This document shows positions 4,684 to 27,237 of a stretch of 27,237 nt of DNA, piece by piece (position 1 is the first letter of the stretch; every line of letters begins with the position of its first letter). The position numbers and the translations under genes are program-made. Below the pieces are notes generated by a model, which saw only the letters and a program-made list of their open reading frames with translations, was not told the origin of the DNA and did not search any database. The stretch is taken from IMG/VR virus record IMGVR_UViG_3300007778_000327, positions 1 to 27,237 of that record, one strand, 5' to 3'. Source of the stretch: a virus. Taxonomy: Duplodnaviria > Caudoviricetes.

Positions 4684-4712
4684 TTTACTTTTGAACTCAA
4701 TGGGCGTATACT
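4684..4712 (+). promoter_or_regulatory. Promoter for gp43
   Basis: TTTACT-N17-TATACT. Confidence 0.7.
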
Positions 4713-4732
4713 TATCGGTATATGCCCTTTTT
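4702..4732 (+). terminator. Terminator-like hairpin overlapping the gp43 promoter -10 box
   Basis: GGGCGTATAC-TTATCG-GTATATGCCC followed by TTTTT. Confidence 0.65.
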
Positions 4733-4750
4733 CATTATGGAGATAAAACA

Positions 4751-7285
4751 TTGTCTGAATTTTACACATCAGTTGAACGCTTTGGTAATTCCCTTCTCTA
4801 CCGAGGATACAAGAACGGTCAGCGTGTACAGGATAAGATTAAGTTCAAGCCGACCCTATTTGTCCCAGACGCGAAGTCTAGTACTTTCGCCCTAGATGGT
4901 TGCCCCGTATCTCACGTGAACTTTGACTCTATGCGAGACGCAAAAGAGTTCATGGAGCAGTACCGTGATATGCCTAACTTTAAAGTCTATGGCAATACAA
5001 ATTACGTTGTACAGTATATCCAAGAGAAATTCCCAGGCAAGAACATTGCGTTCTCTCGTGAAGATATTGACGTTGCCTCAATCGACATCGAGGTCTACTC
5101 AGCAGATGGGTTTCCGGAACCAGATGAAGCTGCTTATCCTGTAACCGCAATTTGTATGAAATCTTCTAAGGATGACACATATATCGTTTGGGGTACTAAG
5201 GACTATGACTACAGCAAACGTCACGAAGACCTGAAAGACGTGAAGATTGAATACCGCCAGTGTAAAGACGAAGCAACCCTACTTATGCAGTTCGTGTCGC
5301 ATTGGTCATCCCCGCTACATTGTCCAGATGTAGTGACTGGTTGGAACACCCGTTTCTTTGATATTCCGTACCTTGTGAACCGTATAGGCAAAGTCCTCGG
5401 TTCAGACATGGTGAAGAAACTAAGTCCATGGGGGTTAGTCAACGAGCGTAATTCTAAGATCAACGGTCGCGATGTACAGCGATACGAGCTCTCTGGTATC
5501 GCCGAGCTAGACTTCCTAGAACTGTTCAAGAAGTTCACATACTCAGCCCAGGAAAGCTACAAGCTTGACCACATTGCTCACGTAATCCTGGGCGAAAAGA
5601 AACTGAGTTATGAAGAGTTCGGTAACTTGTTCAACCTATACGTCGAAGACCATCAGCTGTTCATTGACTACAACGTCAAGGACGTGCTCCTTGTTCAGCG
5701 ACTTGAAGATAAGATGGGCTTGATTACCCTAGCTATGACACTGGCTTATCGCGGTGGCGTGAACTACTCCGAAACGCTCGGGACTACTGGTATTTGGGAC
5801 TCTATCATATACCGAGACCTTCACGACAAAGGCGTTGTCCTTCAGCCCAACGAAGAGAAGTTCAAGACTGAATTTGCGGGTGGTTACGTTAAAGCACCAA
5901 AGGTTGGTCTACATAACTGGGTCGTTTCTTTTGACTTGAACTCTCTGTACCCCCACCTTATCATGCAGGGCAATATGTCTCCCGAGACTATTCATGATGG
6001 TACGATGGGGTCGATCAGCGTAGAAAGCTGCCTCGACAAAGTTGAGATGAACCCAGGAGAGTATGCCGTTGCCCCTAATGGTGCGATGTTCCGGAAGGAT
6101 CAGCGTGGCGTTATCCCTACAATAATCGAAGAGATGTACGCTGAACGTAAAATGGCTAAGAAGGAAATGCTTCGCGCTGAGCAAGAATTGGTTGACCTTA
6201 AACAAACGAGCGGATATACGAAGGATGACGTGTACCAACTCGAGAAAAAGATATCGACTCTGAATAATAAACAGATGGCTATTAAGATCTTGATGAACTC
6301 ACTTTATGGCGCATTGGGCAACCGTTACTTCCGTCACTTTGACCTGCGTATGGCGGAGGCGATTACGTTGTACGGTCAGCTGGCTATCAAGTGGGCTGAA
6401 AAGGCATTTAATGGCTTCATGAATAAAGTCGTGGGGACTAAGAATTATGATTATGTCATCGCTATTGATACTGATTCTAACTACGTTGACTTTGGTCCTC
6501 TGGTTGAGAAGCTTGGTTACAAAGACAAACCAGTCAAAGAAACAGTCGCGCTGATCGATAAGATTTGTAAAGATCAGTTTGAACCAATGATTGCGAAGGC
6601 ATACAAAGAGCTCGCCGAGTACATGAACGCTTATGAAGATAAGATGGTTATGGAACGTGAGGTAATTGCCGACCGTGGTGTATGGGTAGCCAAGAAACGT
6701 TATATCCTGAACGTTCATAACTCTGAAGGCGTCGAGTACAAAGAACCTAAACTTAAGATGATGGGTATTGAGGCGGTCAAGTCTTCGACCCCAGGGATTT
6801 GTCGCGATGCTATGAAGGAACTATTCAAAGTCATCATGACAGGCTCCGAGAGCAATACTCAGAAGGCGATTGCTCAGTTTAAGGGTTACTTTACGAATCA
6901 GCCGCCAGAGTCTGTAAGCTTCCCTCGAGGCGTCTCTGACGTTATTAAGTGGCGCGATCGTAGTAATATCTACAAGAAGGGCACTCCGATCCACGTTCGC
7001 GGTGCTTTGATGTATAACCATACGCTTGAGCAAAAAGGGTTGAAGGTTTATCCAAAAATACAGAATGGCGATAAGGTCAAGTTCTGTTACTTGAAGAAAC
7101 CAAACCCGATAGGCGAGAACGTTATCTCTTATCCTGATTACTTGCCCGAAGAGCTTCAGCTTCACAAGTATGTGGACTATGAGACGATGTTTAACAAAAC
7201 GTTCCTCGATGCGATTACTCCGATTCTAGATGCGATTGGCTGGTCTGCTGAAGAGCGTGTAAGTATTGAGGATTTCTTTGGATGA
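4751..7285 (+). CDS. 43: Family B DNA polymerase (T4 gp43)
   Basis: Exo I DIE, FDLNSLYP, KILMNSLYG, IDTDS, KKRY; C-terminal clamp-binding tail SIEDFFG; TTG start at 4751 follows GGAG. Confidence 0.97.
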   Translation: MSEFYTSVERFGNSLLYRGYKNGQRVQDKIKFKPTLFVPDAKSSTFALDGCPVSHVNFDSMRDAKEFMEQYRDMPNFKVYGNTNYVVQYIQEKFPGKNIAFSREDIDVASIDIEVYSADGFPEPDEAAYPVTAICMKSSKDDTYIVWGTKDYDYSKRHEDLKDVKIEYRQCKDEATLLMQFVSHWSSPLHCPDVVTGWNTRFFDIPYLVNRIGKVLGSDMVKKLSPWGLVNERNSKINGRDVQRYELSGIAELDFLELFKKFTYSAQESYKLDHIAHVILGEKKLSYEEFGNLFNLYVEDHQLFIDYNVKDVLLVQRLEDKMGLITLAMTLAYRGGVNYSETLGTTGIWDSIIYRDLHDKGVVLQPNEEKFKTEFAGGYVKAPKVGLHNWVVSFDLNSLYPHLIMQGNMSPETIHDGTMGSISVESCLDKVEMNPGEYAVAPNGAMFRKDQRGVIPTIIEEMYAERKMAKKEMLRAEQELVDLKQTSGYTKDDVYQLEKKISTLNNKQMAIKILMNSLYGALGNRYFRHFDLRMAEAITLYGQLAIKWAEKAFNGFMNKVVGTKNYDYVIAIDTDSNYVDFGPLVEKLGYKDKPVKETVALIDKICKDQFEPMIAKAYKELAEYMNAYEDKMVMEREVIADRGVWVAKKRYILNVHNSEGVEYKEPKLKMMGIEAVKSSTPGICRDAMKELFKVIMTGSESNTQKAIAQFKGYFTNQPPESVSFPRGVSDVIKWRDRSNIYKKGTPIHVRGALMYNHTLEQKGLKVYPKIQNGDKVKFCYLKKPNPIGENVISYPDYLPEELQLHKYVDYETMFNKTFLDAITPILDAIGWSAEERVSIEDFFG

Positions 7286-10856: not shown

Positions 10857-12305
10857 ATGGAAAAAGTTACAATTAACGGTCGGCAATGGCAAAAGTATAT
10901 CGGTGACGAAGGGCAAGATGTTTATGTTGCCCTCTTCGTTGAAGACCAAGAGAACCTCATCGGCAAATACGCTGATGAGGATTCATTCGATATTCTCATT
11001 GACAAAGACGCTGACTTTTATCTACCGCCATCGTGTGATGTAGTCGCTTCTACTGACTGCGATAAGCAATGTATCAACTGTATAGGTGAAGACCGTGTTG
11101 CGTTCAAATTCCGTAAGAACGTATTCACGCAGGAAGAACAAGACGGTGCTTATGCTGGTCTTTACAGCGCTGCTGCTGAGTCTAACAACCGTGGTATGGC
11201 TGCTGGTCCTCGAGCCGAAACAAGTCAGGGTCGCGAATGGGTTACTCCGTTCCAGCGCGATATCCTGGACTTCTTTGCTAAGGGTTCTCCGCAGAACGTT
11301 ATGGGTACTGACCCAGTTGAGGACATTATCAAGAAACATGAAACCAAGCAGTACGAAACACGTGGCGAAGTTTGGTTGGTTCAAAAGGTCGAGAAAGAAT
11401 ATGAGGATTACCGCAATTTCTTTGATCAGTGCCTAGCCAAACTCCGTTCCCTTCCGGTAGATGAAGCTCGGGAATATGCTATACACGTTCGCGATACGAT
11501 GATCAGCGGAACTTCCTACGCTACTCCGCTGTGGTCCGGAATCACTGGCTTCTATGGACGCTACCCTCGTATCCCTTATGGTCGTGCTACTAGCCATGTA
11601 GAGCATAACCGAGAAGACTTTGAGAAGTGCTACCCGTTTGCCCGTAAACTCGACCAAGAGTTTGCTCGCTTACTTCCGCAGCGTTATGCGTACCAAAAAA
11701 GATGTGCTGACAGTATCGACCCTAAATTCTTGATTGGCGAGGATACTACCTTTACGACCGTTACAGTCAATACAACTCAGTCTGACCGAAATGCTCGTAT
11801 GGCTTGTCATAAGGATGCTGGTTCATTAAATGAGGGTTTCTCTAACCTTACTGTAATTGCTCCGAAAGGTAAATCATGGAAGGGCGGATACCTTACTGCT
11901 CCGGAAGTTCGCGCAGCTATTGATGTTCGACCAGGAGATCTACTCCTTATTGATAATATGCGAATAATTCACGGCAATCAGCCTATTGAAGCCCCTGACT
12001 CTGGCGAAGAAGACCTACTTCGTATGTCCCTTGTTTTCTACTTCCGTGAGGATATGTTACAACTAGGTTCTTGGGATTATGAGGCGCTGCGTCGTAAGTT
12101 TGTTGACGATCGTCGAACCAACAAAGAACATCCGTTATGGAAAGAGCGATGGAATGGCGTGAGTCCTGGTTTTATGAACGATAATTCAGAAGAATGGTAT
12201 CAATACCTTTTAGAACATGGAGGCGAAGAGTTGATGAAAGAAAACCAACCAGGGTTATGGGATCATTTCAACAACTCTAATGATTTAGAATCATTTTTCT
12301 CTTAG
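10857..12305 (+). CDS. TET/JBP-like 2OG-Fe(II) nucleic-acid dioxygenase
   Basis: FTTVTVN, RMACHKDAG (HxD), GGYL, PGDLLL, IHGN (distal His), RMSLVFYFRE (2OG-binding Arg). Confidence 0.82.
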   Translation: MEKVTINGRQWQKYIGDEGQDVYVALFVEDQENLIGKYADEDSFDILIDKDADFYLPPSCDVVASTDCDKQCINCIGEDRVAFKFRKNVFTQEEQDGAYAGLYSAAAESNNRGMAAGPRAETSQGREWVTPFQRDILDFFAKGSPQNVMGTDPVEDIIKKHETKQYETRGEVWLVQKVEKEYEDYRNFFDQCLAKLRSLPVDEAREYAIHVRDTMISGTSYATPLWSGITGFYGRYPRIPYGRATSHVEHNREDFEKCYPFARKLDQEFARLLPQRYAYQKRCADSIDPKFLIGEDTTFTTVTVNTTQSDRNARMACHKDAGSLNEGFSNLTVIAPKGKSWKGGYLTAPEVRAAIDVRPGDLLLIDNMRIIHGNQPIEAPDSGEEDLLRMSLVFYFREDMLQLGSWDYEALRRKFVDDRRTNKEHPLWKERWNGVSPGFMNDNSEEWYQYLLEHGGEELMKENQPGLWDHFNNSNDLESFFS

Positions 12306-13031
12306 GGTTTTACAATTGTCGAAGTGGTATCTATTCATGTTACCTTTGTGTTTGGATACCACTCCGCAATGAGGGCAAGTTATATCTTCTCTGCTGTTGA
12401 AAGTTCCTCTATATTTCTGTATTCGGGCTAAACGTTTATCTTTGTCATTATAGAAATCTTTCATAGATTGCTTGTGTGTTTCCCTAGCTTCTTCTGTGTG
12501 CATATGATGGTAGTTTAATTTACCGCTTTCTGAAAATTTATCCCTTGCTTCTTCAGATAGGTTTTTATTTGATAATCTTTGTTTTCTTGTCTCTTCGTCG
12601 TAGGCAGCCCAACCCATTTTAGATTTAGATTCTTCATTGTGAGTTTTGCCGAAGAATGGATTATTCTCTCCGGACATCCTTTTAGAATGTAGAGAATTTT
12701 TCCTACTGACATAAGATTCGTACAATTTAGAGTTTATATCTTTTCTAAAGAACTTGACTGCCGAATACGATTGCGATAATACATCAGGAAACGCTTTAGC
12801 GAGTATTAAGTGGGCTAACCTATGCGCCCTAGTTGGGAGCAATATTTTGTTCCAAGGGTTTTCCACTAAGTTTGTGTATTCTGGGAACATATCCTTAGCC
12901 TTTGGACATATGTGGTGCTTCTCGCCTTCGGTAGAGTCATTGTAAGCCTCTATTAACCGAATGTATCTTGACATGTAATGTTTGTTGTGAGGTTTTGATG
13001 CTAATATTGAATAAATAAGTTTGCTGTCCAT
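12291..13031 (-). mobile_element. Free-standing HNH homing endonuclease with NUMOD3 and a C-terminal Zn-ribbon
   Basis: EKHHICPK, NKILLPTRAHRLAH, NUMOD3 GENNPFFGKTH, CPHCG...HFDNC; AT-rich, antisense to its neighbours, AAGGAG SD. Confidence 0.85.
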
Positions 13032-13059
13032 TTACTTTCTCCTTAAGTTGTAGTATAAT
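13031..13059 (+). promoter_or_regulatory. Promoter for the GATase-amidoligase-GNAT genes
   Basis: TTTACT-N17-TATAAT overlapping the HNH start codon and SD on the opposite strand. Confidence 0.65.
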
Positions 13060-13099
13060 AACGGATAGAGTGGTTGGGGCGACCCGCGAACCATACCTT

Positions 13100-13107
13100 T
13101 ATTTATA
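13100..13107 (-). promoter_or_regulatory. Late promoter for the HNH gene
   Basis: TATTTATA on + equals TATAAATA on -, about 70 nt upstream of the HNH ATG. Confidence 0.65.
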
Positions 13108-13161
13108 ATTTTGCGATTTTCAGGGGTTAGCCCTGACATGTGGTTTAGAGGATTTCTTTTA

Positions 13162-13776
13162 ATGTGCGCAGTAATGGGATTTGAATTAAAAAACGTAACA
13201 AGAGATGATATAAGTGCTATCCGCACCCTATTCTTTGAATCACAAATCCGAGGGAGGCACGCTACTGGCGTGTCTTTCCTAAAAGAGGGTAAGATACATA
13301 CGATAAAGGAAGCTGTTGAGGCATCTGAATTTATAAAACATCATCCACCAATCGACTGGGTTGACGAGAACGGTAACATAACAGCTATCGCTCATTGTCG
13401 GTACAGTACTTCTGACTTGCGTTTTAATCAACCTATTGCTGACGAAAAGTTATCTGTTGTTCATAACGGTGTTATTTCGCAAGAACTTCCGGAGAATTGG
13501 TATAGACTCTATGGAATCAAATGCGAAACCGCTAACGACACCGAACTTCTTTTCCATCGCCCTTCTTTAAATGAGTGGGCAAATTCTTCAATTTCCGCTT
13601 TACTTTTGACAGTAAATGGAATAGAATATATGCGTAATGGTAAAAGACCATTATGGTGTGCTGACATTGAACACGGTCGTATATTTGCTTCGACTTCTGA
13701 CATTATAAGTAGAAGTCAATTCAAAACTAAATCAAAAAACCGAGTTAGTTTTGCTGGTATAGACTTACAACCATAG
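13162..13776 (+). CDS. Class II (Ntn) glutamine amidotransferase
   Basis: Starts MCAVMG (catalytic Cys2); RGRHATG, HCRYSTS, NQPI, HNGVI, NDTE; GAGGA SD. Confidence 0.9.
   Translation: MCAVMGFELKNVTRDDISAIRTLFFESQIRGRHATGVSFLKEGKIHTIKEAVEASEFIKHHPPIDWVDENGNITAIAHCRYSTSDLRFNQPIADEKLSVVHNGVISQELPENWYRLYGIKCETANDTELLFHRPSLNEWANSSISALLLTVNGIEYMRNGKRPLWCADIEHGRIFASTSDIISRSQFKTKSKNRVSFAGIDLQP
13599..13627 (+). promoter_or_regulatory. Internal promoter upstream of the amidoligase
   Basis: GC-TTTACT-N17-TAGAAT. Confidence 0.5.
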
Positions 13777-13784
13777 GATACATT

Positions 13785-14657
13785 ATGTACAATAAAGATG
13801 ATTTTACTTGGGGCTACGAGATTGAGTGGGGCGATATTGACCGTCGCCTAGAGATTCCGGAGCATCTAGGTTCTTGGGAATATTCAGAGACTGACGTAGT
13901 AAACCTGCGTCCACCATACAAATACGTTGCTTGTGATCCGCTCGGCGAAGACCCTCCGTTCGGGGGAGAGGTCAATACTAAACCGACCAAAACCTGGGAA
14001 GAACAGGTAGATCGAATCCAAGAGATTAAACAGTGGTTTACTGATCAGGGATGCGAGCCTACTTCAAACTGCCTAAGCCATTCGCATCTACACGTGTATG
14101 TGCCTGAGCTAACTAAAGATCTAGATGCCCTTAAGCGTTTGATCAAATACATTAAAGCGAACCAAGCTGACGTTGTAGAGAACTGCGGTCTATTCCATGA
14201 AGCGGCTTCCATGAAGAAAGCGAAAGGCGCTACCATGTATATGAAATATGACGGTGGACGCCAGATGCCTGATTACATGGCTGACAATATTATTAATCTG
14301 GCTAAAGACTTTGATCACTTCATCAAGCTCCATGCTGCTGGCAAGGACGGTGTTTCGATGGGTCGCCCTTTCCGTTACGCGATTAACACCTACTGCCTAA
14401 AACATACTGGAACAATCGAGTTTCGGTGTTTTCGGGCTACCACAGAACGTAAGCATATGGAATCTATGTTCCGTTTCGTTGAGGCGTTTATTGATGCTGC
14501 CCTAAACGATGGTCCGAGCGTTAAAGAAATTTTGGCTGATGGCGACTATGAGTTTCCGCCATTCCAGTGGGACTTGAATCAGTGGATAGGGCACCAAAAG
14601 ACAAAGTGGGACAAAGACCGTGGCAAAAAACAGCGAGCATACATTGAAGTTGCGTAG
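13785..14657 (+). CDS. Putative amidoligase (COOH-NH2 ligase, glutamine synthetase/GCS fold)
   Basis: TWGYEIEW (ExE), GEVNT, HLHV, RYAIN, TIEFRCF. Confidence 0.82.
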   Translation: MYNKDDFTWGYEIEWGDIDRRLEIPEHLGSWEYSETDVVNLRPPYKYVACDPLGEDPPFGGEVNTKPTKTWEEQVDRIQEIKQWFTDQGCEPTSNCLSHSHLHVYVPELTKDLDALKRLIKYIKANQADVVENCGLFHEAASMKKAKGATMYMKYDGGRQMPDYMADNIINLAKDFDHFIKLHAAGKDGVSMGRPFRYAINTYCLKHTGTIEFRCFRATTERKHMESMFRFVEAFIDAALNDGPSVKEILADGDYEFPPFQWDLNQWIGHQKTKWDKDRGKKQRAYIEVA

Positions 14658-15177
14658 CACGACAGCGGAGGAGTTTACCTCCGCTATATCTGATGACCCT
14701 GCGGATAAGTTCGCCAATACCTTTATTGCGAAGGCGAACATGCAGGGGTTATGGGATAAGTGTATAGGGTTATGGGATGGCGACCAGCTTGCTGGCGCTA
14801 TCATAACGACTGTGTCTAAACGTTCACCAAAAGTAGCAAACCTACAACTCCTCCATACGTTTGCGGCTCATAGGGGTAAGGGTGTTGCCCGAATCCTTTG
14901 CGAAGATTCTCTTGAGCGAGTAAAGGGGCAGGCGACATACTTCCGTGTGTCCTCTGAAATCCCTGCTATTAAGTTCTACGAGAAGATCGGCTTTACTTTC
15001 CAAGGTAAACAGAAAAGTGGCTGCCAGCTATCTATCTTCCGCATAAACAATACTTTCGCTGATAGCTATTATCAGCTAGACGATCCTGTCATCTACTCCG
15101 CAGTACACAAGAAAGGCAAAGGCGGTTGCGTCGAAGTCTTTCTTGAATCACCAAAAGGGTTAGAAGATTTCTTCTGA
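14644..15177 (+). CDS. GNAT acetyltransferase
   Basis: Motif A HRGKGVA, motif B AIKFYEKIGF; start at TTG 14644 or GTG 14620. Confidence 0.88.
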   Translation: MKLRSTTAEEFTSAISDDPADKFANTFIAKANMQGLWDKCIGLWDGDQLAGAIITTVSKRSPKVANLQLLHTFAAHRGKGVARILCEDSLERVKGQATYFRVSSEIPAIKFYEKIGFTFQGKQKSGCQLSIFRINNTFADSYYQLDDPVIYSAVHKKGKGGCVEVFLESPKGLEDFF

Positions 15178-15207
15178 TCCTTATTCCTATTTGATATAAT
15201 AATTTCC

Positions 15208-15236
15208 TTTACTTTTATCCCAGATCCACCTATAAT
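15208..15236 (+). promoter_or_regulatory. Early promoter
   Basis: TTTACT-N17-TATAAT; upstream element shared with the 7822 promoter. Confidence 0.8.
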
Positions 15237-15265
15237 TACCTTGTATTGAGATCGAGGACTATATC

Positions 15266-16573
15266 ATGGCTAAAAAAAATCAAGCGTTCGTATACGGTTG
15301 GAATAATATTCAGAACAAAAAGAAATACGTAGGATTTCGTAAGAGTAGCGAAATCAACGACGGCTACAAATTTTCATCAGAAGACAAAGAGCTTAAAAGG
15401 GATTGGTCAAGAGGTTTACTACACAGGTCAATCCTTTTTGTAGGTACACCCGAAGAAGCTATAAAATACGAAAGCAAACTACTACACCACTTTAACGCAC
15501 GCACCAACGGGCAGTTTTACAACAAGTCAAACGGAGGCGGAGTAGGTTGTAAAGGTTGGGAGGAACTTTCAGAGAGCGTAATTCAGGGAGGAATAGATTG
15601 GGTTGAGAAGGGTATAGAGCCAATCACAGAATCAAAAGACACTTACGATGTAATCGATACAAAACTAGTTAATCGGATTTGGAAAAACTGCCAAGAGGGG
15701 AAATACCAAGTAGTTGAAACTAATATTGAGGAAATTCGTAAATTTGATCACAACCAGGTTCGTTTAGTATTATTAGACCCGAAACACGTACAAGCTATTG
15801 CGGAGAAGATGGAAGACGACCCAGCAGAGGCTCGTACTAACGTTTCTCCAATTATAGTTTGCGTCAGCCCAGACGGTACACGAACTATACTAGACGGAAA
15901 CCACACTTCCAGGGCAGTAGATGTAGCTAATTGGCAATCAGCGCCAGTTATATACTTAAATTCTTCGGAGTTTAATGATAGCCAGTCGAATATGGATAAG
16001 TTTGGTAACGTTGCTAATCACAACCCTAAATTGAAGAAACCAAATAGTTCACGTGATTGCCAGAGAGCTATCACAAACTTATGGGCGAACAACTTTAGGG
16101 ATAATGACCCAAACCTTGAGATCCTACAAAGTGAAAAATTTAAAAACACTTGTTTAGAAGTTTTTTACCCACTTTGGTCGCTAAGGGAGATCGCTTCTAA
16201 CTACAGTAAAGCAGTCATTAACGTAAAAACAGATAAGGCGACAGCTGACCTTAACTTTATTAAATACAGTTCAAAGGAGCTTGACGCTATCGCTAAATCT
16301 GTTAGAGACCGCAACCCTGATTTGGCAGTGATTACGGTATCTTCTGGCGCTTGTTACAACTCTGGTATTGGTGGGGTTCTTAACAAGATGGGCGGTATGG
16401 ATAATTGGAATGGAATGCTTATTATTCACCACGGCAACATTAATGAATACGAGCTTTGGACGGAATCTGAAGCCAAGCTACATAAAGCTTTAAAACGTGT
16501 TCACCCCGATTGCGATATAAAGATTCGAATTCTTAAAGCATTCGAGACGAAACAAAAACGAGTAAATCTTTAA
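15266..16573 (+). CDS. GIY-YIG-like N-terminal domain fused to a ParB/Srx-like domain
   Basis: FVYGW..KKYVG..GYKFSS..E..FYN (Seg-like); SPIIV...ILDGNHT (ParB/Srx motif). Confidence 0.7.
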   Translation: MAKKNQAFVYGWNNIQNKKKYVGFRKSSEINDGYKFSSEDKELKRDWSRGLLHRSILFVGTPEEAIKYESKLLHHFNARTNGQFYNKSNGGGVGCKGWEELSESVIQGGIDWVEKGIEPITESKDTYDVIDTKLVNRIWKNCQEGKYQVVETNIEEIRKFDHNQVRLVLLDPKHVQAIAEKMEDDPAEARTNVSPIIVCVSPDGTRTILDGNHTSRAVDVANWQSAPVIYLNSSEFNDSQSNMDKFGNVANHNPKLKKPNSSRDCQRAITNLWANNFRDNDPNLEILQSEKFKNTCLEVFYPLWSLREIASNYSKAVINVKTDKATADLNFIKYSSKELDAIAKSVRDRNPDLAVITVSSGACYNSGIGGVLNKMGGMDNWNGMLIIHHGNINEYELWTESEAKLHKALKRVHPDCDIKIRILKAFETKQKRVNL

Positions 16574-17586
16574 TGAACTATAACGAAAACCGAAGAGAGG
16601 CTTTCATTAAGTGGTATGCGTGGTCCTTGGAATTCAAGGACTGCGACCCCGCTGTTTGGATGACCAATTACCTTAATGATAGATTTGAACATAACTCAGA
16701 GCAGCGTATCTGGCTGTCTTGGTTGTATGGCAATACATACTACCTACCAACCGCTTGGGTTCTTATTAATGAGTTCCCTGACTTTGAGTTGGCTACCTAT
16801 GACCGAATGAACCAATGGAACACGGAGAACTATAAACGTCTCCGCTACCAAACGGACACAAAATGGTCTAAGGGACACTTAGCCGATATGTTCAAATCCT
16901 ATCATGCTTTCGTTGGAGATAAAACCCAGCGCGAAGTATTTGAGCAGTATATGGGGGATAACGAAGAACAAAATTTCGATAAACTATATGAAGTCGTCAA
17001 AGATAAGTTCTACAAGTTCGGACGCTATTCTACTTGGTTCTTTCTACAGCACCTAAATCATACCGCCAATATCCCAAACGTACCAGATAGTTTATTGCTA
17101 GATGACTTTAGCGGTTCTCGCTCTCATCGTAATGGCTTATTGCTGGCGCTCGGTAAGGATGATCAGTACGATGTACGTCAGACTATTGGGGAATATGCTT
17201 GGCTCGAAGCAGAAGCAAAAAGTATAATGGAAGAGATGAAAAGTCGCTTCCCACACTTGACTTCTGAGATAAATCCGTTTACAATGGAAACCTGTCTCTG
17301 TTCATTTAAGAAGATATTCCGAGTGCGTCATGGCAGATACTTGGGGTATTACAATGACAGGGTCGCAGAGGAGATCTCTAAGGTTGAATCTGATGGTTGG
17401 TATGGTATTGAGTGGCGTGTACTTTGGGACGCTCGTAGAGAAACTCTTGATGCTAGGCTGTATGATTCAAACGTTATCCAAAAGGGTAAGATGGCTGAGT
17501 TCGTTGAAACTAATAATATTGACCGACTAGACTGGATGTTCAAAGAAGACGAACCAGTCTCAATGGGTCTTGATGCTTTTATGTGA
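16573..17586 (+). CDS. Amino acid:DNA transferase (aGPT-Pplase2-like, HhH glycosylase fold)
   Basis: DCDP, WLYGNTY, HhH-like KFGRYSTWF, SRSHRNGL, METCLCSFKK, RYLGYY. Confidence 0.78.
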   Translation: MNYNENRREAFIKWYAWSLEFKDCDPAVWMTNYLNDRFEHNSEQRIWLSWLYGNTYYLPTAWVLINEFPDFELATYDRMNQWNTENYKRLRYQTDTKWSKGHLADMFKSYHAFVGDKTQREVFEQYMGDNEEQNFDKLYEVVKDKFYKFGRYSTWFFLQHLNHTANIPNVPDSLLLDDFSGSRSHRNGLLLALGKDDQYDVRQTIGEYAWLEAEAKSIMEEMKSRFPHLTSEINPFTMETCLCSFKKIFRVRHGRYLGYYNDRVAEEISKVESDGWYGIEWRVLWDARRETLDARLYDSNVIQKGKMAEFVETNNIDRLDWMFKEDEPVSMGLDAFM

Positions 17587-17593
17587 GGATATT

Positions 17594-18139
17594 ATGAAAC
17601 TAATTTATTTGATTGGCGTGCCAGGAACAGGTAAGTCTACAATCATGAAAGAATTTATGAGCAGATTCGATGGGTGGAAAACCGACCGTCCGATTGACCT
17701 GCTAGACACGCACGTGAGCGGGAACGTGCGCGTGCTCGGGAAATACGAAGAAGGCGAAACGTTCTCAGGGACAGACCGTTTGTCTATGGCTGTCGCGCCA
17801 AAAGCAATTGAATACTTTACTTCTAACCCAGAAGAGGTTATAATAGGTGAAGGTGATAGATTGAATAACAAAGGCGTTTTTGAATCTGTTGAAGATAAAG
17901 TCATAATCCATCTAACGGTCTCGGATAAAGAACGTCAACGTCGATACGATGAACGTGGCTCGGAGCAGAGTGATAAGTTCATCCAAACAGTAGCAACTAA
18001 ATGTAAAAATATAGTAGAGGCTTTCGGCGATCAGCAAACCCTATTCGGCGAAGAAGAGGGATGTATTGTTGAGTTCAAACACGAGACTCCTGAGGATACG
18101 CAAAAAGTCGTGGAGTATATGATGTCATGTATTCGCTAA
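17594..18139 (+). CDS. P-loop nucleotide kinase associated with base modification
   Basis: GVPGTGKST, GTDRLS, EGDRL, RYDERGS; adjacent to the transferase; GAGGA SD. Confidence 0.82.
   Translation: MKLIYLIGVPGTGKSTIMKEFMSRFDGWKTDRPIDLLDTHVSGNVRVLGKYEEGETFSGTDRLSMAVAPKAIEYFTSNPEEVIIGEGDRLNNKGVFESVEDKVIIHLTVSDKERQRRYDERGSEQSDKFIQTVATKCKNIVEAFGDQQTLFGEEEGCIVEFKHETPEDTQKVVEYMMSCIR
17816..17844 (+). promoter_or_regulatory. Internal promoter upstream of the primase-like gene
   Basis: TTTACT-N17-TATAAT. Confidence 0.6.
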
Positions 18140-19062
18140 CAATTTTCAAGAATCGTTTCGATAATAAGACAAATAAGCGCATGGACTTCGAGACCTGGGA
18201 ACAGTTCGAAGAACTCTTGTATAAGCTTGCCTCGCAGCCCCTAGCAGGTAAAGAGGCTGCTCAACTAATTTCGCCAGCAGTATATTTGGAAGGCGAGAAA
18301 CGTCGAAATGCGAATGTTATAGAATGGGCTGGTTGGGCTGCTGTTGATGTTGATGAACATAAGTTCGAGGGAGACTTAGAAAATGAACTTAGATCTAAGT
18401 TTGGTTCTTGGGATTTTGTCTGTTACAGTACTGCTAGCAGTAGCGCTGATCATCCAAAGTTTAGGTTGGTCTTCCCACTTAAATCAGGAGTTAAAGCGGA
18501 TAAGATTAAAGCATTCTGGTTTGCGCTCAACACCGAACTCGATTCAATTGGAGATAAACAGACTAAAGATTTGTCTCGGATGTATTACATACCTGCGGAG
18601 TATGCTGGCGCTAACAACTTCATCTTTAGTAATCGCGGTGATTACATTGATCCCGATGAGTTGATAAAGAAACACCCCTTTATCCAGAAACAATCAAACA
18701 ACTTCATCGACAATCTTCCGGAGGCTATGCAGAAAGAGATTATTGCTCATCGTAAAGCTAAACTTCCCAACCGTGAAAAATTTAAATGGAGCAGTATTCA
18801 TGATTGTCCGTTTGTCAATAAGAAAATGCTGGTTGAATACCGAGCTATTTCTGAGACTGGTTGGTATCATAAGATGTATCAATTTATGGTAGCAGTTGCA
18901 TTTAATGCGATTAAAAGTGGATACCCGATATCCGGAAACGAAATTGAAATGATGGCGAGAGAGCTTGACCGAGAAACTGGCAATTGGTATGAGAAAAGAC
19001 CTTTACTGCTTGAGGCAAATTCTGCGCTTAATTATGCTTATAAGAACAGTGAGGTTTTATGA
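18127..19062 (+). CDS. AEP/PrimPol-like primase
   Basis: AVDVD (DxD), YSTAS, PKFRLVFPL, DLSRMYYIP; helical C-terminal domain. Confidence 0.7.
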   Translation: MYSLTIFKNRFDNKTNKRMDFETWEQFEELLYKLASQPLAGKEAAQLISPAVYLEGEKRRNANVIEWAGWAAVDVDEHKFEGDLENELRSKFGSWDFVCYSTASSSADHPKFRLVFPLKSGVKADKIKAFWFALNTELDSIGDKQTKDLSRMYYIPAEYAGANNFIFSNRGDYIDPDELIKKHPFIQKQSNNFIDNLPEAMQKEIIAHRKAKLPNREKFKWSSIHDCPFVNKKMLVEYRAISETGWYHKMYQFMVAVAFNAIKSGYPISGNEIEMMARELDRETGNWYEKRPLLLEANSALNYAYKNSEVL

Positions 19063-22282: not shown

Positions 22283-22972
22283 ATGAAAAGTTATAATGAA
22301 ATAGCTAGTGCCCGTCTTGTTAGCTACTCTCAGGCGACTGAAGAGTTTAAGGACATGGGGGTTGATGGTGTTCAAGAATTGATCGCTTATTGTGCAAGGG
22401 TTTCTAATCCAAAGAATCAAGTAAACAATGAGACAGCAGAAAAGTTGATCAATTATTTGATTAAACACTCTCACTGGTCACCGTTAGAAGTCGTGAGCGC
22501 AAACATTGAGATTGTGACTACACGCGATATTGCTCGTCAGATTCTACGCCACCGCTCGTTCTCTTTCCAAGAGTTCAGTCAGCGTTATGCCGATCCTTTC
22601 GAGCAGTTTGATGAAGCGTTCTGTTATCGTGAAGCGCGTATGCAGGACGAGGTGAATCGTCAGAACTCAGTCGTATCTGACGACCCTAAGATTCAGGAAG
22701 AATGGATGCGTATTCAACAGCGTGTACTAAACTTTGTTAAGAAAGAGTACGGATATGCGCGTGAACTTGGTATCGCTAAGGAACAACGTAGAGCCTTGCT
22801 GCCTGAAGGTAATACCCTCTCATACCTTTACATGAACGGCACTATCCGCAGCTGGATTCACTTCATTCAGTTGAGGGCTGGCAACGGTACTCAGAAAGAA
22901 CATCAGATGATCGCAATTGAGTGCGCAAAGGCAATCAACAAGATCTTCCCCTATGCGGCAAAATTAATTTAA
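22283..22972 (+). CDS. thyX: Flavin-dependent thymidylate synthase
   Basis: ThyX motif RHRSFSFQEFSQRY, HWSPLE, TQKEH. Confidence 0.95.
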   Translation: MKSYNEIASARLVSYSQATEEFKDMGVDGVQELIAYCARVSNPKNQVNNETAEKLINYLIKHSHWSPLEVVSANIEIVTTRDIARQILRHRSFSFQEFSQRYADPFEQFDEAFCYREARMQDEVNRQNSVVSDDPKIQEEWMRIQQRVLNFVKKEYGYARELGIAKEQRRALLPEGNTLSYLYMNGTIRSWIHFIQLRAGNGTQKEHQMIAIECAKAINKIFPYAAKLI

Positions 22973-23890: not shown

Positions 23891-23921
23891 ATATATAATT
23901 TGTATTTAAATGGGAACCCTG

Positions 23922-25193
23922 ATGCTACATTTCAATCAATTTTCTAAGCTCAAAGAAGCCACGATAGTCAATCAAACGACTTATACGACTGGGCATAAAC
24001 TCGAGTTGCGCAAAACCGCAAAGGACGTATTGAAAGACGCCCTTAAAGGCGATATAGAATTGGCTGACCCGCAAGAGGCAATTGAACTTGTTATCGGTAA
24101 GGGCACTGCTTCTGTATACGTTAAATCTGGTGGACAAGTATATAAGATTGTTGGTTCGGAATCGGGCATCAACGGTTCGTTCAATCACGCTGGTGGCGGT
24201 AAATCAGATACCCATAAAAAGACTCGTTGTAAAGAAGCAATGAGCGTTATTGTATTCAAGCATTGGCAAGAGACTGGTTCACTTATCGACGAAGATAGCG
24301 CGATTAAAGAACTAACTAAGTGGGGTGCCGACCCATCTGTATATGGTTCAACTTACTACACAAGCGCCAAACTACAGCTTGAATCGTTTAAGAAAATCAA
24401 GCGTATGGGTACTATGCACTTCGAGTTTCAGGGCGACACCTATTCGGCTCCCATCTACGCTAAAGCAAAAGCATTGGGTGGACCTAAGTCTGCGGACAAC
24501 TGGAACCCTGCGGATATCTGGCTATTCAACGATTCTTGGAAAGGTAATCTGAAAACTGAACTGGATAAGATCGAACACATTCAAGAACTGAACCTTTGGA
24601 TTCGTCGCCATTACGTTAAGAAAAACATTGTCCCTATTTCCCTCAAACAAGCTTCCGGAAAATCACACATCGAACTAATCGAACCTATCAAATACAAAAA
24701 CCGCCAGCTTGATTATGACTTTACTTTGAACCGTATCATTATTGCTGGTTCTTGTAAGTCCGTATTCGTTGAGACTAACTCAGGCTTCCAGTTTAAGGCA
24801 AACGCTCGCGCTGCTAAGGATAATCCAAACCTATTCTACGAAGGTACTATGAAGAAGGAAAACTTCTCTATGGGCGCTATTGATAAACCTGAGTGGGATC
24901 GTTTCTCTCGCGGTGAAGTTCCGGCAGGTAAGACTATCAAGCCAACTGACGGTTTGTTGAGCCGCTCGCTTGCCACGTATACTAAGTACAAAGACGTTAT
25001 CCTACAAAAAGATAATGAGAACCTATGGGCTCCAGACTTTAATTCTATGGATAACCTAGCCAAGCAGCGCTACATTCACTGCGCGGACTTCCTTAAGTTC
25101 GTTATGGAAAATTACGAAGAAACTATTCGCTTCGGCTTCTTTGCCTCTATGAAAGTTTCAGACATTAACTCAATGTACCTGAAGATTAAGTAA
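23922..25193 (+). CDS. Late protein with a PD-(D/E)xK-like nuclease motif and a capsid-targeting-like leader
   Basis: MLHFNQFSKLKE; E...DNWNPADIW...PISLK. Confidence 0.6.
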   Translation: MLHFNQFSKLKEATIVNQTTYTTGHKLELRKTAKDVLKDALKGDIELADPQEAIELVIGKGTASVYVKSGGQVYKIVGSESGINGSFNHAGGGKSDTHKKTRCKEAMSVIVFKHWQETGSLIDEDSAIKELTKWGADPSVYGSTYYTSAKLQLESFKKIKRMGTMHFEFQGDTYSAPIYAKAKALGGPKSADNWNPADIWLFNDSWKGNLKTELDKIEHIQELNLWIRRHYVKKNIVPISLKQASGKSHIELIEPIKYKNRQLDYDFTLNRIIIAGSCKSVFVETNSGFQFKANARAAKDNPNLFYEGTMKKENFSMGAIDKPEWDRFSRGEVPAGKTIKPTDGLLSRSLATYTKYKDVILQKDNENLWAPDFNSMDNLAKQRYIHCADFLKFVMENYEETIRFGFFASMKVSDINSMYLKIK

Positions 25194-25194
25194 T

Positions 25195-25791
25195 ATGAAA
25201 AAGTTTAAAGATTTTATCTCTGAAGAGAAAGACGGCAACCCTTGCTGGAAAGGTTACAAGCAGCTTGGTATGAAGAAGAAAGGCGACAAAGAAGTACCTA
25301 ATTGTGTGCCTGAAGAGAATGAACTTGAAGAACGTTCTACAGGTCAACAAATTAAAACAATGGTCGGTAAATTCTTCAATAAGAAAAATTATAAAGCAGC
25401 GGCTGAATATGCTAAGAAATCTGGTAAAAAGGCAGCTGACGTTGCTCGTATGTATAAGGGTGTCGATGCCAGAGAATTAGCTTCTATGATCGGCGAAGAT
25501 ACTGAACTTGAAGAGTCTGCTGAATACCAAGGTAAGAAAGTGACCCTTAACAACCCATTCCGATTGCCCTCTGGTTCTAAAAAGAAGTTTGGCGTGTACG
25601 TAAAAAACGACAAAGGCAATGTCGTGATGGTTAAGTTTGGCGACCCTAATATGGAAATAAAACGTGATGACCCAGAACGTCGCAAGTCATTCCGCGCTCG
25701 TCATGGTTGTGATACAGACCCTGGTCCAAAATGGAAAGCAAAATTTTGGAGTTGTCACCAATGGAGAGCTGGCGCAAAGGTGGATAATTAA
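25195..25791 (+). CDS. Modular internal-head-like protein (DUF6321-like C-terminus)
   Basis: MKKFKDFISEE leader; CWKGY...VPNCVP module; two ELEE linkers; FGDPNM...RKSFRARHGC...WSC. Confidence 0.75.
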   Translation: MKKFKDFISEEKDGNPCWKGYKQLGMKKKGDKEVPNCVPEENELEERSTGQQIKTMVGKFFNKKNYKAAAEYAKKSGKKAADVARMYKGVDARELASMIGEDTELEESAEYQGKKVTLNNPFRLPSGSKKKFGVYVKNDKGNVVMVKFGDPNMEIKRDDPERRKSFRARHGCDTDPGPKWKAKFWSCHQWRAGAKVDN

Positions 25792-27237
25792 TGAAAGGCT
25801 TCACTCAGTTCCTAAACGAGACTATAATTAAAAAGGATGGTAAGTATCGTCTGGTGTCAAAGTCAGGTAAGAACCTTGGTGAATTTGATACTAGAGATGA
25901 AGCCGAGGAGCGCGAGCGCGAGATTCAATACTTTAAAAGTAAAAATGAAGAGCATGGCGCAGGCGAAGAAGGCACACCGGAATTATTAAGGAAGTATAAA
26001 AAAGATACCCCAATGGAAGGTTTCGATGCTTTCAGTTCTTTACTCACCGAAGAAAAGAACACCCATATGACGCACATCGAAGATCAGGTTATCTATGGTG
26101 GTGTTAACGGAGCGCGGGAAGCCATCCTAGCTCTCAGGTCCCTCCGCGATATGCTCGCAGGTAATAGTAAAGGATCGACTGACGTAACTGTTAAATGGGA
26201 TGGCGCTCCTGCCGTTTTCTGTGGTATAGACCCTGAAGACGGTAAATTCTTTGTGGCAAAGAAAGGTATCTTTAATAAGAACCCGAAAGTCTATAAAACT
26301 AAACAGGATATCTACGACGACATAGATAATGCAGAGTTGGCTCAGAAGATGCTTGTTTCTCTTGAAGAGCTATCTAAACTAGGAATTAAAGGCGTTGTTC
26401 AAGGTGACATCATGTTTACTGACGACGTCAAGGAAGAGACAATTGACGGCGAAAAATATCTTACTTTTCATCCTAATACTATTGTGTACGCTGTACCTAG
26501 TGAATCAGAAGCCGCTCGGAGTATTCGTAAAGCCAAAATCGGTGTCGTGTTCCATACAGCCTACAATGGGTCTTCCTTCGCCGACATGCGAGCGAGTTAT
26601 GGAGTAGACGTAAGTAAGTTCAAATCAGTTCCTACAGTATGGGCGGAAAGTGCTACGTTGAAAGACTTATCGGGCACTGTAACTCTAACGCAAAAAGATA
26701 CAAAAGAAGTTACTGATGCGCTGTCAACCGCAGGTAAGATTTTCTCGCGAATATCTGGTTCTACGTTAAGAGAACTAGAAGCTCATCCTGATTTACCACG
26801 TTTGATTGAGACTTATAATAACTCCTTTGTACGCAAGGGTGAAGTCATCAAGGATACCAGAAATCACGTTGAAGGTTTGATCAAATTCATTGAAGAACGT
26901 TACGCAAAAGAAATTGATAAGCGCAAGTCTGAGAAAGGTAAGCAGGCTCAACGAGACAAGTTGGACACTATCCTTGAATTTTTTAATCGTAAAAACAAGC
27001 CATCTTTGGTCCAGATTTTTGAATTACAGAAGGCTATCGTCAACGCCAAGATGATAGTTATTAAGAAACTAAATAAGCTAAATAATATAAATACTTTTGT
27101 TAAGACCAAGAATGGCTTTAAGGTTACTGGCGCAGAAGGGTTTGTTGCTATAGACCATATGAAAGGTGGAGCGGTTAAGCTCGTCGATCGTATGGAGTTT
27201 TCAATGAACAACTTTGATCCAGATATTGTGAAAGGTT
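25791..27237 (+). CDS. DUF6267-like protein with ligase-type nucleotidyltransferase motifs; 3'-truncated and absent from the ORF track
   Basis: Frame read by hand from ATG 25791 and in phase at the window end: MKGFTQFLNE, KNTHMTHIED, VKWDGAPA, QGDIMF, PNTIVYAVP, EGFVAID, AVKLVDRMEFS. Confidence 0.8.
   Translation, partial: MKGFTQFLNETIIKKDGKYRLVSKSGKNLGEFDTRDEAEEREREIQYFKSKNEEHGAGEEGTPELLRKYKKDTPMEGFDAFSSLLTEEKNTHMTHIEDQVIYGGVNGAREAILALRSLRDMLAGNSKGSTDVTVKWDGAPAVFCGIDPEDGKFFVAKKGIFNKNPKVYKTKQDIYDDIDNAELAQKMLVSLEELSKLGIKGVVQGDIMFTDDVKEETIDGEKYLTFHPNTIVYAVPSESEAARSIRKAKIGVVFHTAYNGSSFADMRASYGVDVSKFKSVPTVWAESATLKDLSGTVTLTQKDTKEVTDALSTAGKIFSRISGSTLRELEAHPDLPRLIETYNNSFVRKGEVIKDTRNHVEGLIKFIEERYAKEIDKRKSEKGKQAQRDKLDTILEFFNRKNKPSLVQIFELQKAIVNAKMIVIKKLNKLNNINTFVKTKNGFKVTGAEGFVAIDHMKGGAVKLVDRMEFSMNNFDPDIVKG

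Follow-up and report, generated by a model that had tools for sequence, protein, structure and literature searches.

What modification does a phage write on its thymines when its replication genes enclose a dioxygenase, a glutaminase, an amide ligase, an acetyltransferase, a DNA transferase and a kinase? This question was raised by a cassette in the DNA of a tailed virus (Duplodnaviria; Caudoviricetes; IMG/VR record IMGVR_UViG_3300007778_000327, positions 1 to 27,237). The whole stretch of 27,237 nt is called the window here. The six co-oriented genes encode a TET/JBP dioxygenase (TET), a glutamine amidotransferase (GATase), an amidoligase, a GNAT acetyltransferase, an amino acid:DNA transferase (AADT) and a nucleotide kinase (Table 1). 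All six, as named in a preliminary description made from the sequence alone, were found in place with their catalytic residues kept. The cassette is real, conserved and of a published kind (Lee 2021; O'Toole 2026); similar neighbourhoods were mentioned in that description as predicted computationally.

We tentatively propose that, in widespread aquatic T4-like phages, a clamp-borne line of enzymes aminates the thymine of nascent DNA by means of a glutamine-dependent 'ammonia:DNA transferase'. The resulting 5-aminomethyldeoxyuridine (5-aminomethyl-dU, 5-NmdU) would serve universally as the point to which exchangeable acyl, phospho-acyl and glycosyl groups are attached. The sliding clamp would replace ParB as activator of the dioxygenase, and the modifying enzymes of phages ViI and PhiW-14 would also be tethered. 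The product here would be an amide-linked, N-acetylated glutamyl thymine, which was not found in literature searches. Taken jointly, these claims are less than an even bet.

The cassette proteins were present at 100% identity on two IMG/VR contigs, which indicated that the gene arrangement is not an assembly accident. In profile searches TET, GATase, GNAT, AADT and kinase matched the expected families. Direct matches of the amidoligase were weak, and its homologues matched PF12224.

Linkage was surveyed from two anchors. The ligase-anchored survey comprised 80 loci, not dereplicated, from which four window-identical copies were excluded; 28 were wide enough to judge. All six genes were present in 28/28, in the same order in 26. 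The linkage claimed for a single gene cluster was thus confirmed, but not its contiguity, as a minus-strand gene (12291-13031) and a 435-aa gene (15266-16573) lie inside. This survey, being selected on the ligase, could not expose ligase-free loci.

The AADT-anchored survey comprised 82 loci (the best 80 of 520 confirmed metagenome relatives, less two window-identical ones, plus four from genomes), and 30 of these were wide, with at least 7 kb upstream. GATase was present in all 30, TET and the kinase in 29 each, the ligase in 18 and a window-type GNAT in 17. This suggested that TET, GATase, transferase and kinase are likely the core, and that the ligase and GNAT are one of several exchangeable tailoring modules, the ligase being predicted to be an optional tailoring enzyme. 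The whole cassette was found in no cultured phage; among 50,697 records there were two distant ligase matches. Long TETs with other partners occurred in the cultured phages C48C1, DLP6 and Cr30.

Which enzyme receives the ammonia was examined in the 21 loci without the window-type pair of ligase and GNAT, by reading the gap between GATase and AADT. It held a different GNAT alone in 14, another GNAT alone in one, a divergent ligase with a low-molecular-weight (LMW) phosphatase in one, and a glycosyltransferase with a divergent ligase and phosphatase in four. In the remaining locus (L212, AADT 74% identical) it held nothing: the order was TET-GATase-AADT-kinase, with GATase directly beside AADT. 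Moreover, GATase was fused to an AADT of the window subfamily in three proteins (P0320, P0321 and L284). P0320 and P0321 were 37% identical to the window AADT and had the same pocket.

As GATase was kept beside the transferase when the ligase was gone, it would most simply supply the transferase's nucleophile, and is likely the ammonia source for that enzyme. In the preliminary description GATase fed the amidoligase, which amidated an attached amino acid. With GATase accompanying the transferase in 30/30 loci and the ligase in only 18/30, and with the GATase-AADT fusions, that order of steps is probably wrong. The enzyme kinds in the slot between GATase and AADT, GNATs and amide ligases, are those that act on a primary amine, which fits 5-aminomethyl-dU. 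In the accessible part of PMC8989533, the GNAT gp48 of PaMx11 acetylates 5-NmdU and not its N-glycyl precursor.

Some of these loci are of interest in themselves. L212 (core only) and L216 (core plus GNAT) are natural minimal variants, predicted to make 5-NmdU and 5-AcNmdU respectively. The variant with a divergent amidoligase and LMW phosphatase was seen in L214, L215, L219, L226 and L267, with a GT-B glycosyltransferase in four of them. In L284 (5975-8576) the fusion gene stands beside a TET-like open reading frame (ORF) in a bacterial metagenome-assembled genome; an integrase-like gene adjoins, and the locus is perhaps a prophage. No genomic locus was found for P0320.

In the pathway proposed, TET would make 5-hydroxymethyldeoxyuridine (5-hydroxymethyl-dU, 5-hmdU) from T in copied DNA and the kinase would phosphorylate it. 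The transferase would then replace the phosphate with ammonia supplied by the glutaminase, giving 5-NmdU. Alternatively, and with the same product, the transferase would take glutamine, to be trimmed by the Ntn hydrolase. The ligase would activate a small carboxylic acid with ATP and form an amide with the DNA amine. Glutamine-synthetase-fold ligases habitually act on the gamma-carboxyl of glutamate; on this basis that group is the best guess for the acyl donor, although a doubtful one. GNAT would acetylate the free amine of the acid, or else 5-aminomethyl-dU directly, competing for the amine. In the phosphatase and glycosyltransferase variants a phosphorylated acid would be attached, and its hydroxyl then unmasked and glycosylated. 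The enzymes would probably work from the gp45 sliding clamp, to which they would be tethered. The likely purpose, judged from known thymidine hypermodifications, is protection from host nucleases.

The nucleosides predicted are 5-NmdU (257 u), its acetylated form 5-AcNmdU (299.11), gamma-glutamyl-NmdU (386.14) and the N-acetyl form of the latter (428.15). Glutamine-dependent amination of thymine is moderately favoured by the co-occurrence data. The chain of oxidation, phosphorylation, amination and exchangeable acylation, the identity of the acyl group aside, appears slightly better than an even chance.

The transferase scored 78.4 bits against PF18724 (cut-off 26.2). Residues D25, Y56, D95, E239, T240 and C243 were invariant in 34/34 relatives; positions equivalent to D25, E239, T240 and C243 bind metal and catalyse, according to the available portion of PMC13458397. 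The preliminary description had considered that 16573-17586 might resolve as a repair glycosylase. This did not occur: an HhH glycosylase was rejected, because ADDT was the only Pfam match and the metal-binding E-T and the catalytic Cys were kept in 34/34. The nearest characterised enzyme was ViI gp247 (29% identity, E 6e-27), and there was no significant match to the YuA, PaMx11, PhiW-14 or 15599 enzymes, which are of glycine or diamine types. The tree had long branches and an open fork at the window AADT, and a PDB sequence search yielded nothing meaningful. The pocket residues are S244, K247, R255 and Y256, with an uncertain alignment near 255-262. The pocket was compared with those of the known donor classes (glycine, K248/Y257; diamine, G227/H230/D238; ViI serine type) and fitted none of them. 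It came closest to ViI, differing at positions 18, 25 and 244.

The kinase, which adjoins AADT, scored 62.8 bits against PF18751 (cut-off 27), and its Walker A and EGDR motifs were invariant in 36 relatives. Its probable start is the ATG at 17594; the longest ORF begins at 17570. Other genes were seen between AADT and kinase. In GNAT-only variants there was a radical SAM gene (L223 8710-10137, Pfam-confirmed), and the product of L248 9002-10507 has a similar N-terminus, so that a further tailoring step is possible. A Thr/Ser-rich gene of 120-145 aa recurred at this place in many relatives (L028 13743-14168; L058, L216, L239 and L273).

The true start of GATase is the ATG at 13162, which gives Met-Cys (Cys2). 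The class II motifs were conserved: the N-terminal Cys, HxRYST, HNG and Asp. The ligase had no Pfam match above cut-off and no PDB match by profile search (direct match phrog_7469, E 3e-4). Its Atlas neighbours were Amidoligase_2 clusters (0.96-0.98). E12, E14, E62, H101, H103, R197, E212 and R214 were conserved in at least 90% of 100 homologues. The window ligase thus has the pattern ExE, E, HxH, R, ExR, which we take to be the signature of Amidoligase_2/COOH-NH2 ligases. Its homologues were found fused to GNAT, 5-hmdU kinases, TAGT, LMWPc or GATase, and in the window the start of the GNAT gene overlaps the ligase stop. Vibrio phage 2.275.O (L086 7866-13074) has a distant homologue of the amidoligase, with 7-deazaguanine genes (QueF, QueC-like, FolE) and an Ntn hydrolase as neighbours.

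The dioxygenase scored 47.7 bits against PF12851 (cut-off 34.9). H318, D320, H372 and R389, forming the HxD...H iron triad and the 2-oxoglutarate-binding Arg, were invariant in 47/47 relatives. The protein carries a long insertion and a C-terminal extension; the 5-methylpyrimidine dioxygenases (5mYOX) tested previously are about 210-340 aa long, as far as Dataset S11 of PMC13229309 lists them. Compared by eye with that dataset, its motifs resemble those of clade C1, whose members with similar motifs oxidise T in the portion of PMC13229309 at hand. A search for shorter TET homologues gave proteins of at most 264 aa, many of them probably fragments and of no use for placing the window TET. The window TET likely converts T to 5-hydroxymethyl-U in DNA.

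No match to the ThyA family or to C5-methyltransferases was found in five larger relatives, of which two were at least 90% complete; control genomes matched, and a divergent enzyme could escape detection. Taken with the intact ThyX, this suggested that plain thymidine is most likely incorporated and oxidised after replication. The post-replicative sequence of T oxidation, phosphorylation and AADT-catalysed substitution in the preliminary description was therefore supported, the catalytic set of AADT being kept as well.

The preliminary description had missed one feature, the clamp-type C-terminal tails. In the window the polymerase ends in SIEDFFG, TET in DLESFFS, GNAT in GLEDFF and, more weakly, AADT in GLDAFM. 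A tail pattern was fixed after seeing the data, and a tail score was built from polymerase tails alone. In the first set the pattern was found in 33/35 TETs, 20/34 AADTs and 3/38 GNATs, against 0/427 background ORFs. The tail score exceeded the background maximum in 34/35 TETs, 8/34 AADTs and 5/38 GNATs, and in 0/22 ligases, 0/36 GATases and 0/25 kinases. In a second, partly overlapping set the unchanged pattern was found as follows: TET 36/38, AADT 23/63, GNAT 0/22, ligase 1/20, GATase 0/50 and kinase 0/58. The window GNAT tail scored 25.8 versus 29.4 for the polymerase and 14.8 for the background maximum. The alternative GNAT had the tail L-[ED]-[ED]-F-L in 14/14 loci.

Modifier tails also followed the polymerase of their own phage. 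In ViI the polymerase tail is VNLLSMM and the AADT tail VNLMSLL; in PhiW-14 they are LGAFFV and LGSFFR; in Vibrio phage D506 the polymerase has KARKLW, the kinase KTKKLW and AADT KTRKLW. For 22 modifiers in seven tail groups, the true pairing with polymerases was the best of 5040 permutations (1/5040), with groups set after viewing and some phages close kin. The misses were TET and AADT of Cr30 and the window AADT, which ranked low against their own polymerases. YuA, Mudslide and HTVC112P had no gp45 match and, by eye, no clamp-type tail; Mudslide and HTVC112P have a ParB beside TET.

When the gp45 trimer of one relative was modelled together with the C-terminal 35 residues of that relative's TET, the score was 0.63, versus 0.00 for the best control. 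The mark used was reached by 116/157 solved and 2/215 mismatched pairs, counts that apply only roughly here. Runs agreed in at least 88% of contacts, partner pLDDT was at least 43, and the interface was formed by the last ten residues. The model may have passed through likeness to solved clamp-peptide complexes. From the tails and the model, clamp tethering of at least the dioxygenase is quite probable.

Several tails deserve separate mention. Modifier tails matched their own polymerase tail in L182 (ViI), L185 (PhiW-14) and, more weakly, L186 (SH-Ab 15599). In L193 and L196 (Vibrio phages D506 and K444) the tail shared by AADT, kinase and polymerase was a quite different K-x-[RK]-K-L-W. The divergent ligase of L267 ends in a clamp-type tail. 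A loop of the window kinase (TLFGEE, 18038-18055) might be an internal clamp-binding site; as a motif it was found only in the window's subclade, and it was not counted.

Some points weighed against tethering. The GNAT tail was missing in many relatives, only 5/38 exceeding the background maximum; the window AADT tail scored 9.3, below the background 99th percentile of 12.4, with only 8/34 AADT tails above the maximum; and a C-terminal tail is lacking in the kinase. No gp45 was seen for the window phage itself: the window starts at the clamp loader, and a window-identical 41-kb contig had no match, though relatives did. In addition, binding of T4 glucosyltransferase to gp45 was not found in a 2025 preprint, where, in the part available, C-terminal tags were used.

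The two genes interrupting the cassette were then considered. The minus-strand homing endonuclease between TET and GATase carries NUMOD3 and was present only in window-identical copies. Of 68 loci, 35 had the 435-aa gene between GNAT and AADT, 16 had a different gene there and 17 had no gene. The 435-aa product shared only 26% identity with its counterpart in a relative with a 90% identical ligase, and it had no match in two near-complete relatives. One of its homologues reached 33.2 bits against ParB_N (cut-off 26.3), and its structural rows in the Atlas were ParB proteins (TM 0.34-0.37). We regard the 435-aa gene as a passenger, not always present, that probably encodes a mobile endonuclease. 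The window copy (15266-16573) belongs to a phage family that joins a GIY-YIG-like nuclease head to a ParB-like domain and alternates with an HNH-like gene at the same site.

This gene could nevertheless be taken, in place of the clamp, as the activator of TET, as in the ParB-dependent T-dioxygenases. Its ParB-like domain and the clade C1-like motifs of TET, judged by eye, speak for this. However, it was not between GNAT and AADT in 33/68 loci and was unmatched in two near-complete relatives. Its head is GIY-YIG-like, it is twice as long as the tested ParBs, and its identity is discordant with that of its neighbours. No cognate ParB of about 200 aa (NBD and CTD) was found adjoining TET, only the optional 435-aa gene; ParB_N had no match in the two near-complete relatives, nor was there an over-cut-off ParB match in the five larger relatives, where control genomes matched. 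An obligate role as ParB activator was rejected for a gene that is optional and looks mobile, and activation of TET by this gene is regarded as improbable. More improbable still is that TET acts on 5-methylcytosine, or takes T to a 5-carboxy-dU which the ligase amidates. The phage 5mYOXs tested oxidise both T and 5-methylcytosine and reach carboxy forms in vitro, in the accessible account of them. On the other hand, none of the five relatives had a C5-methyltransferase match, and the kinase and AADT, which need the hydroxymethyl stage, belong to the constant core.

Direct amination by the transferase has difficulties of its own. An ammonia-using AADT was not found in literature searches, and the 15599 Pplase2 gave only a trace product with small monoamines in the part of PMC13458397 available. 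The nearest characterised AADT, that of ViI (29%), transfers serine through its oxygen and shares K247/R255. Related AADTs occur in mycobacteriophage Mudslide and in Cr30, where the stretch examined has no annotated GATase. GATase is also fused to the ligase (P0318, P0216) and to GNAT (P0319), and P0317 has a similar domain; co-occurrence therefore weighs more than fusion. The acyl donor is a guess. In a reading that follows the step order of the preliminary description, AADT would link a serine-like amino acid by the oxygen of its side chain, the ligase would amidate the free carboxyl with ammonia from GATase, and GNAT would acetylate the free amine. The doubly capped residue would be of 386.14 u for serine; gamma-glutamyl-NmdU and N-acetyl-serinamide-O-T have this same formula mass. 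AADT indeed groups with the ViI-type serine transferases, with D95, K247 and R255 common to both, and GATase adjoins the ligase in all wide ligase-anchored loci. Yet GATase remains without the ligase in 12/30 loci, it lies directly beside AADT in L212, and it is fused to AADT in three proteins; the ViI pocket also differs at positions 18, 25 and 244. The O-linked amino acid capped at both ends was demoted by the AADT-anchored survey, the GATase-AADT fusions and the ligase-free loci, and this order of steps appears unlikely. It is rather improbable, too, that AADT transfers in one step a soluble amine donor assembled away from the DNA by the ligase, GATase and GNAT. The absence of clamp-type tails from all 22 ligases and 36 GATases would agree with this, as would the use of free small molecules by known AADTs, so far as their sources could be seen. 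It is opposed by the tails on the window GNAT, on the alternative GNAT (14/14 loci) and on one divergent ligase (L267). The AADT pocket residues are also unchanged across tailoring genes, which is unlikely if donors differ.

The amination pathway was compared with known systems. Contigs with TET_JBP, kinase, aGPT-Pplase2, amidoligase and glutamidotransferase were reported by Lee et al. 2021 (PMC8989533), who left the last two unexplained in the accessible text. Those metavirome contigs share with the window the enzyme families, the lack of a dUMP hydroxymethylase and the predicted oxidation of T in DNA; the same text gives no amidoligase or GATase function, product or step order, and the word 'clamp' is not in its main text. 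Contigs with kinase and aGPT-Pplase are mentioned in the part of Burke et al. 2021 at hand. O'Toole et al. (PNAS 2026, PMC13229309), in the portion available, showed phage T-dioxygenase activity and linked clade C1 to GATase, kinase and AADT. The window resembles clade C1 in this linkage, in similar catalytic motifs and in a C-terminal extension. Unlike the C1 enzymes described there, its TET has 482 aa instead of about 250-340, no short cognate ParB and a polymerase-type tail. According to the same portion, some C1 members that lack a ParB showed no activity in E. coli, for reasons left unclear; the absence of a phage clamp may account for part of these failures.

The PaMx11 5-AcNmdU pathway (gp49, gp46, gp47 and gp48) resembles the proposal in its 5-aminomethyl-dU intermediate and subsequent GNAT acetylation. 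In PaMx11, however, the starting point is 5-hmdU already incorporated, and 5-NmdU arises by way of glycine and a flavin adenine dinucleotide (FAD) enzyme, whereas the window pathway would reach 5-NmdU directly with ammonia and add a ligase. The ViI serine:DNA transferase gp247 shares catalytic residues with the window AADT, and its tail matches its own polymerase. ViI uses serine and a pyridoxal-phosphate (PLP) decarboxylase on incorporated 5-hmdU, and its pocket is unlike that of the window at 18, 25 and 244.

The gp45-binding motifs of T4/RB69 gp43, gp33 and DNA ligase are short hydrophobic L-x-x-F-F-like peptides in the accessible part of PMC6212786, as in the polymerase here. In the window, such a predicted motif is borne by base-modifying enzymes instead. 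Clamp tails on thymine-modifying enzymes were not reported in the literature searched, papers and supplements beyond reach aside. The only clamp claim found for a base-modifying enzyme was that for T4 alpha-glucosyltransferase, which was not reproduced in the portion seen of the 2025 preprint. No characterised product of this enzyme set was found either, in agreement with the preliminary description, though papers or supplements beyond reach may hold one.

If true, the pathway would give a testable step order for a kind of phage DNA modification that is in print but still unsolved. To the known activities of AADTs it would add direct amination, and the ligase would be one that places amides on DNA. 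Thymine bearing an enzymatically installed primary amine would give DNA a convenient site for labelling. If the enzymes ride the clamp, 'post-replicative' modification would be linked to the replisome, and the silence of some ParB-less phage dioxygenases in E. coli could be explained. The natural minimal variants L212 and L216 make testing cheap.

Table 1. Genes and tail motif of the cassette, with two further genes of the window
Feature	Position	Strand	Evidence
TET/JBP 5-methylpyrimidine dioxygenase, 482 aa	10857..12305	+	PF12851 E 1.3e-12
Polymerase-type C-terminal tail of TET, DLESFFS, predicted gp45 sliding-clamp motif	12282..12302	+	tail score
Homing endonuclease (NUMOD3), passenger outside the pathway	12291..13031	-	phrog_655 E 5e-26
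Stand-alone class II (Ntn) glutamine amidotransferase, 204 aa	13162..13776	+	GATase_6 E 3.5e-10
Amidoligase_2 (predicted glutamine-synthetase-like carboxylate-amine ligase), 290 aa	13785..14657	+	Atlas 0.96-0.98, conserved residues
GNAT acetyltransferase, 185 aa, tail GLEDFF	14620..15177	+	Acetyltransf_10 E 8e-11
GIY-YIG-like N-terminus with ParB-like middle domain, 435 aa	15266..16573	+	phrog_314 E 3e-11
aGPT-Pplase2/AADT DNA transferase, ViI-related subfamily, 337 aa	16573..17586	+	PF18724 E 9e-22
P-loop nucleotide kinase 3, likely 5-hmdU DNA kinase	17594..18139	+	PF18751 E 3.9e-17
Family B DNA polymerase, C-terminal tail SIEDFFG = reference motif	4691..7285	+	
ThyX thymidylate synthase, RHR...S.R motif intact	22283..22972	+	Thy1 E 2.8e-37

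The window covers part of the replication module of a T4-like phage, with clamp loader subunits, RegA, the family B polymerase and a ligase, and further with UvsX, a helicase, a dCMP deaminase and ThyX. A primase-polymerase-like gene (18127-19062) directly follows the kinase. The end of the window (23910-27236) holds three genes without known function, one of them DUF6267.

Two cultured phages offered related neighbourhoods. In Caulobacter phage Cr30 (L096 6995-12158) a long TET, annotated as 'SNF2 DNA repair protein', lies close to a related AADT (gp123), a TAGT-like glycosyltransferase and an inositol-1-phosphate synthase; the virion DNA of this phage is directly analysable. In phage C48C1 (L094 7001-10448) the TET is 63% identical to that of the window and has the same tail. 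After it come a glycosyltransferase-like gene and a UDP-galactopyranose mutase, from which a galactofuranosylated base would be predicted.

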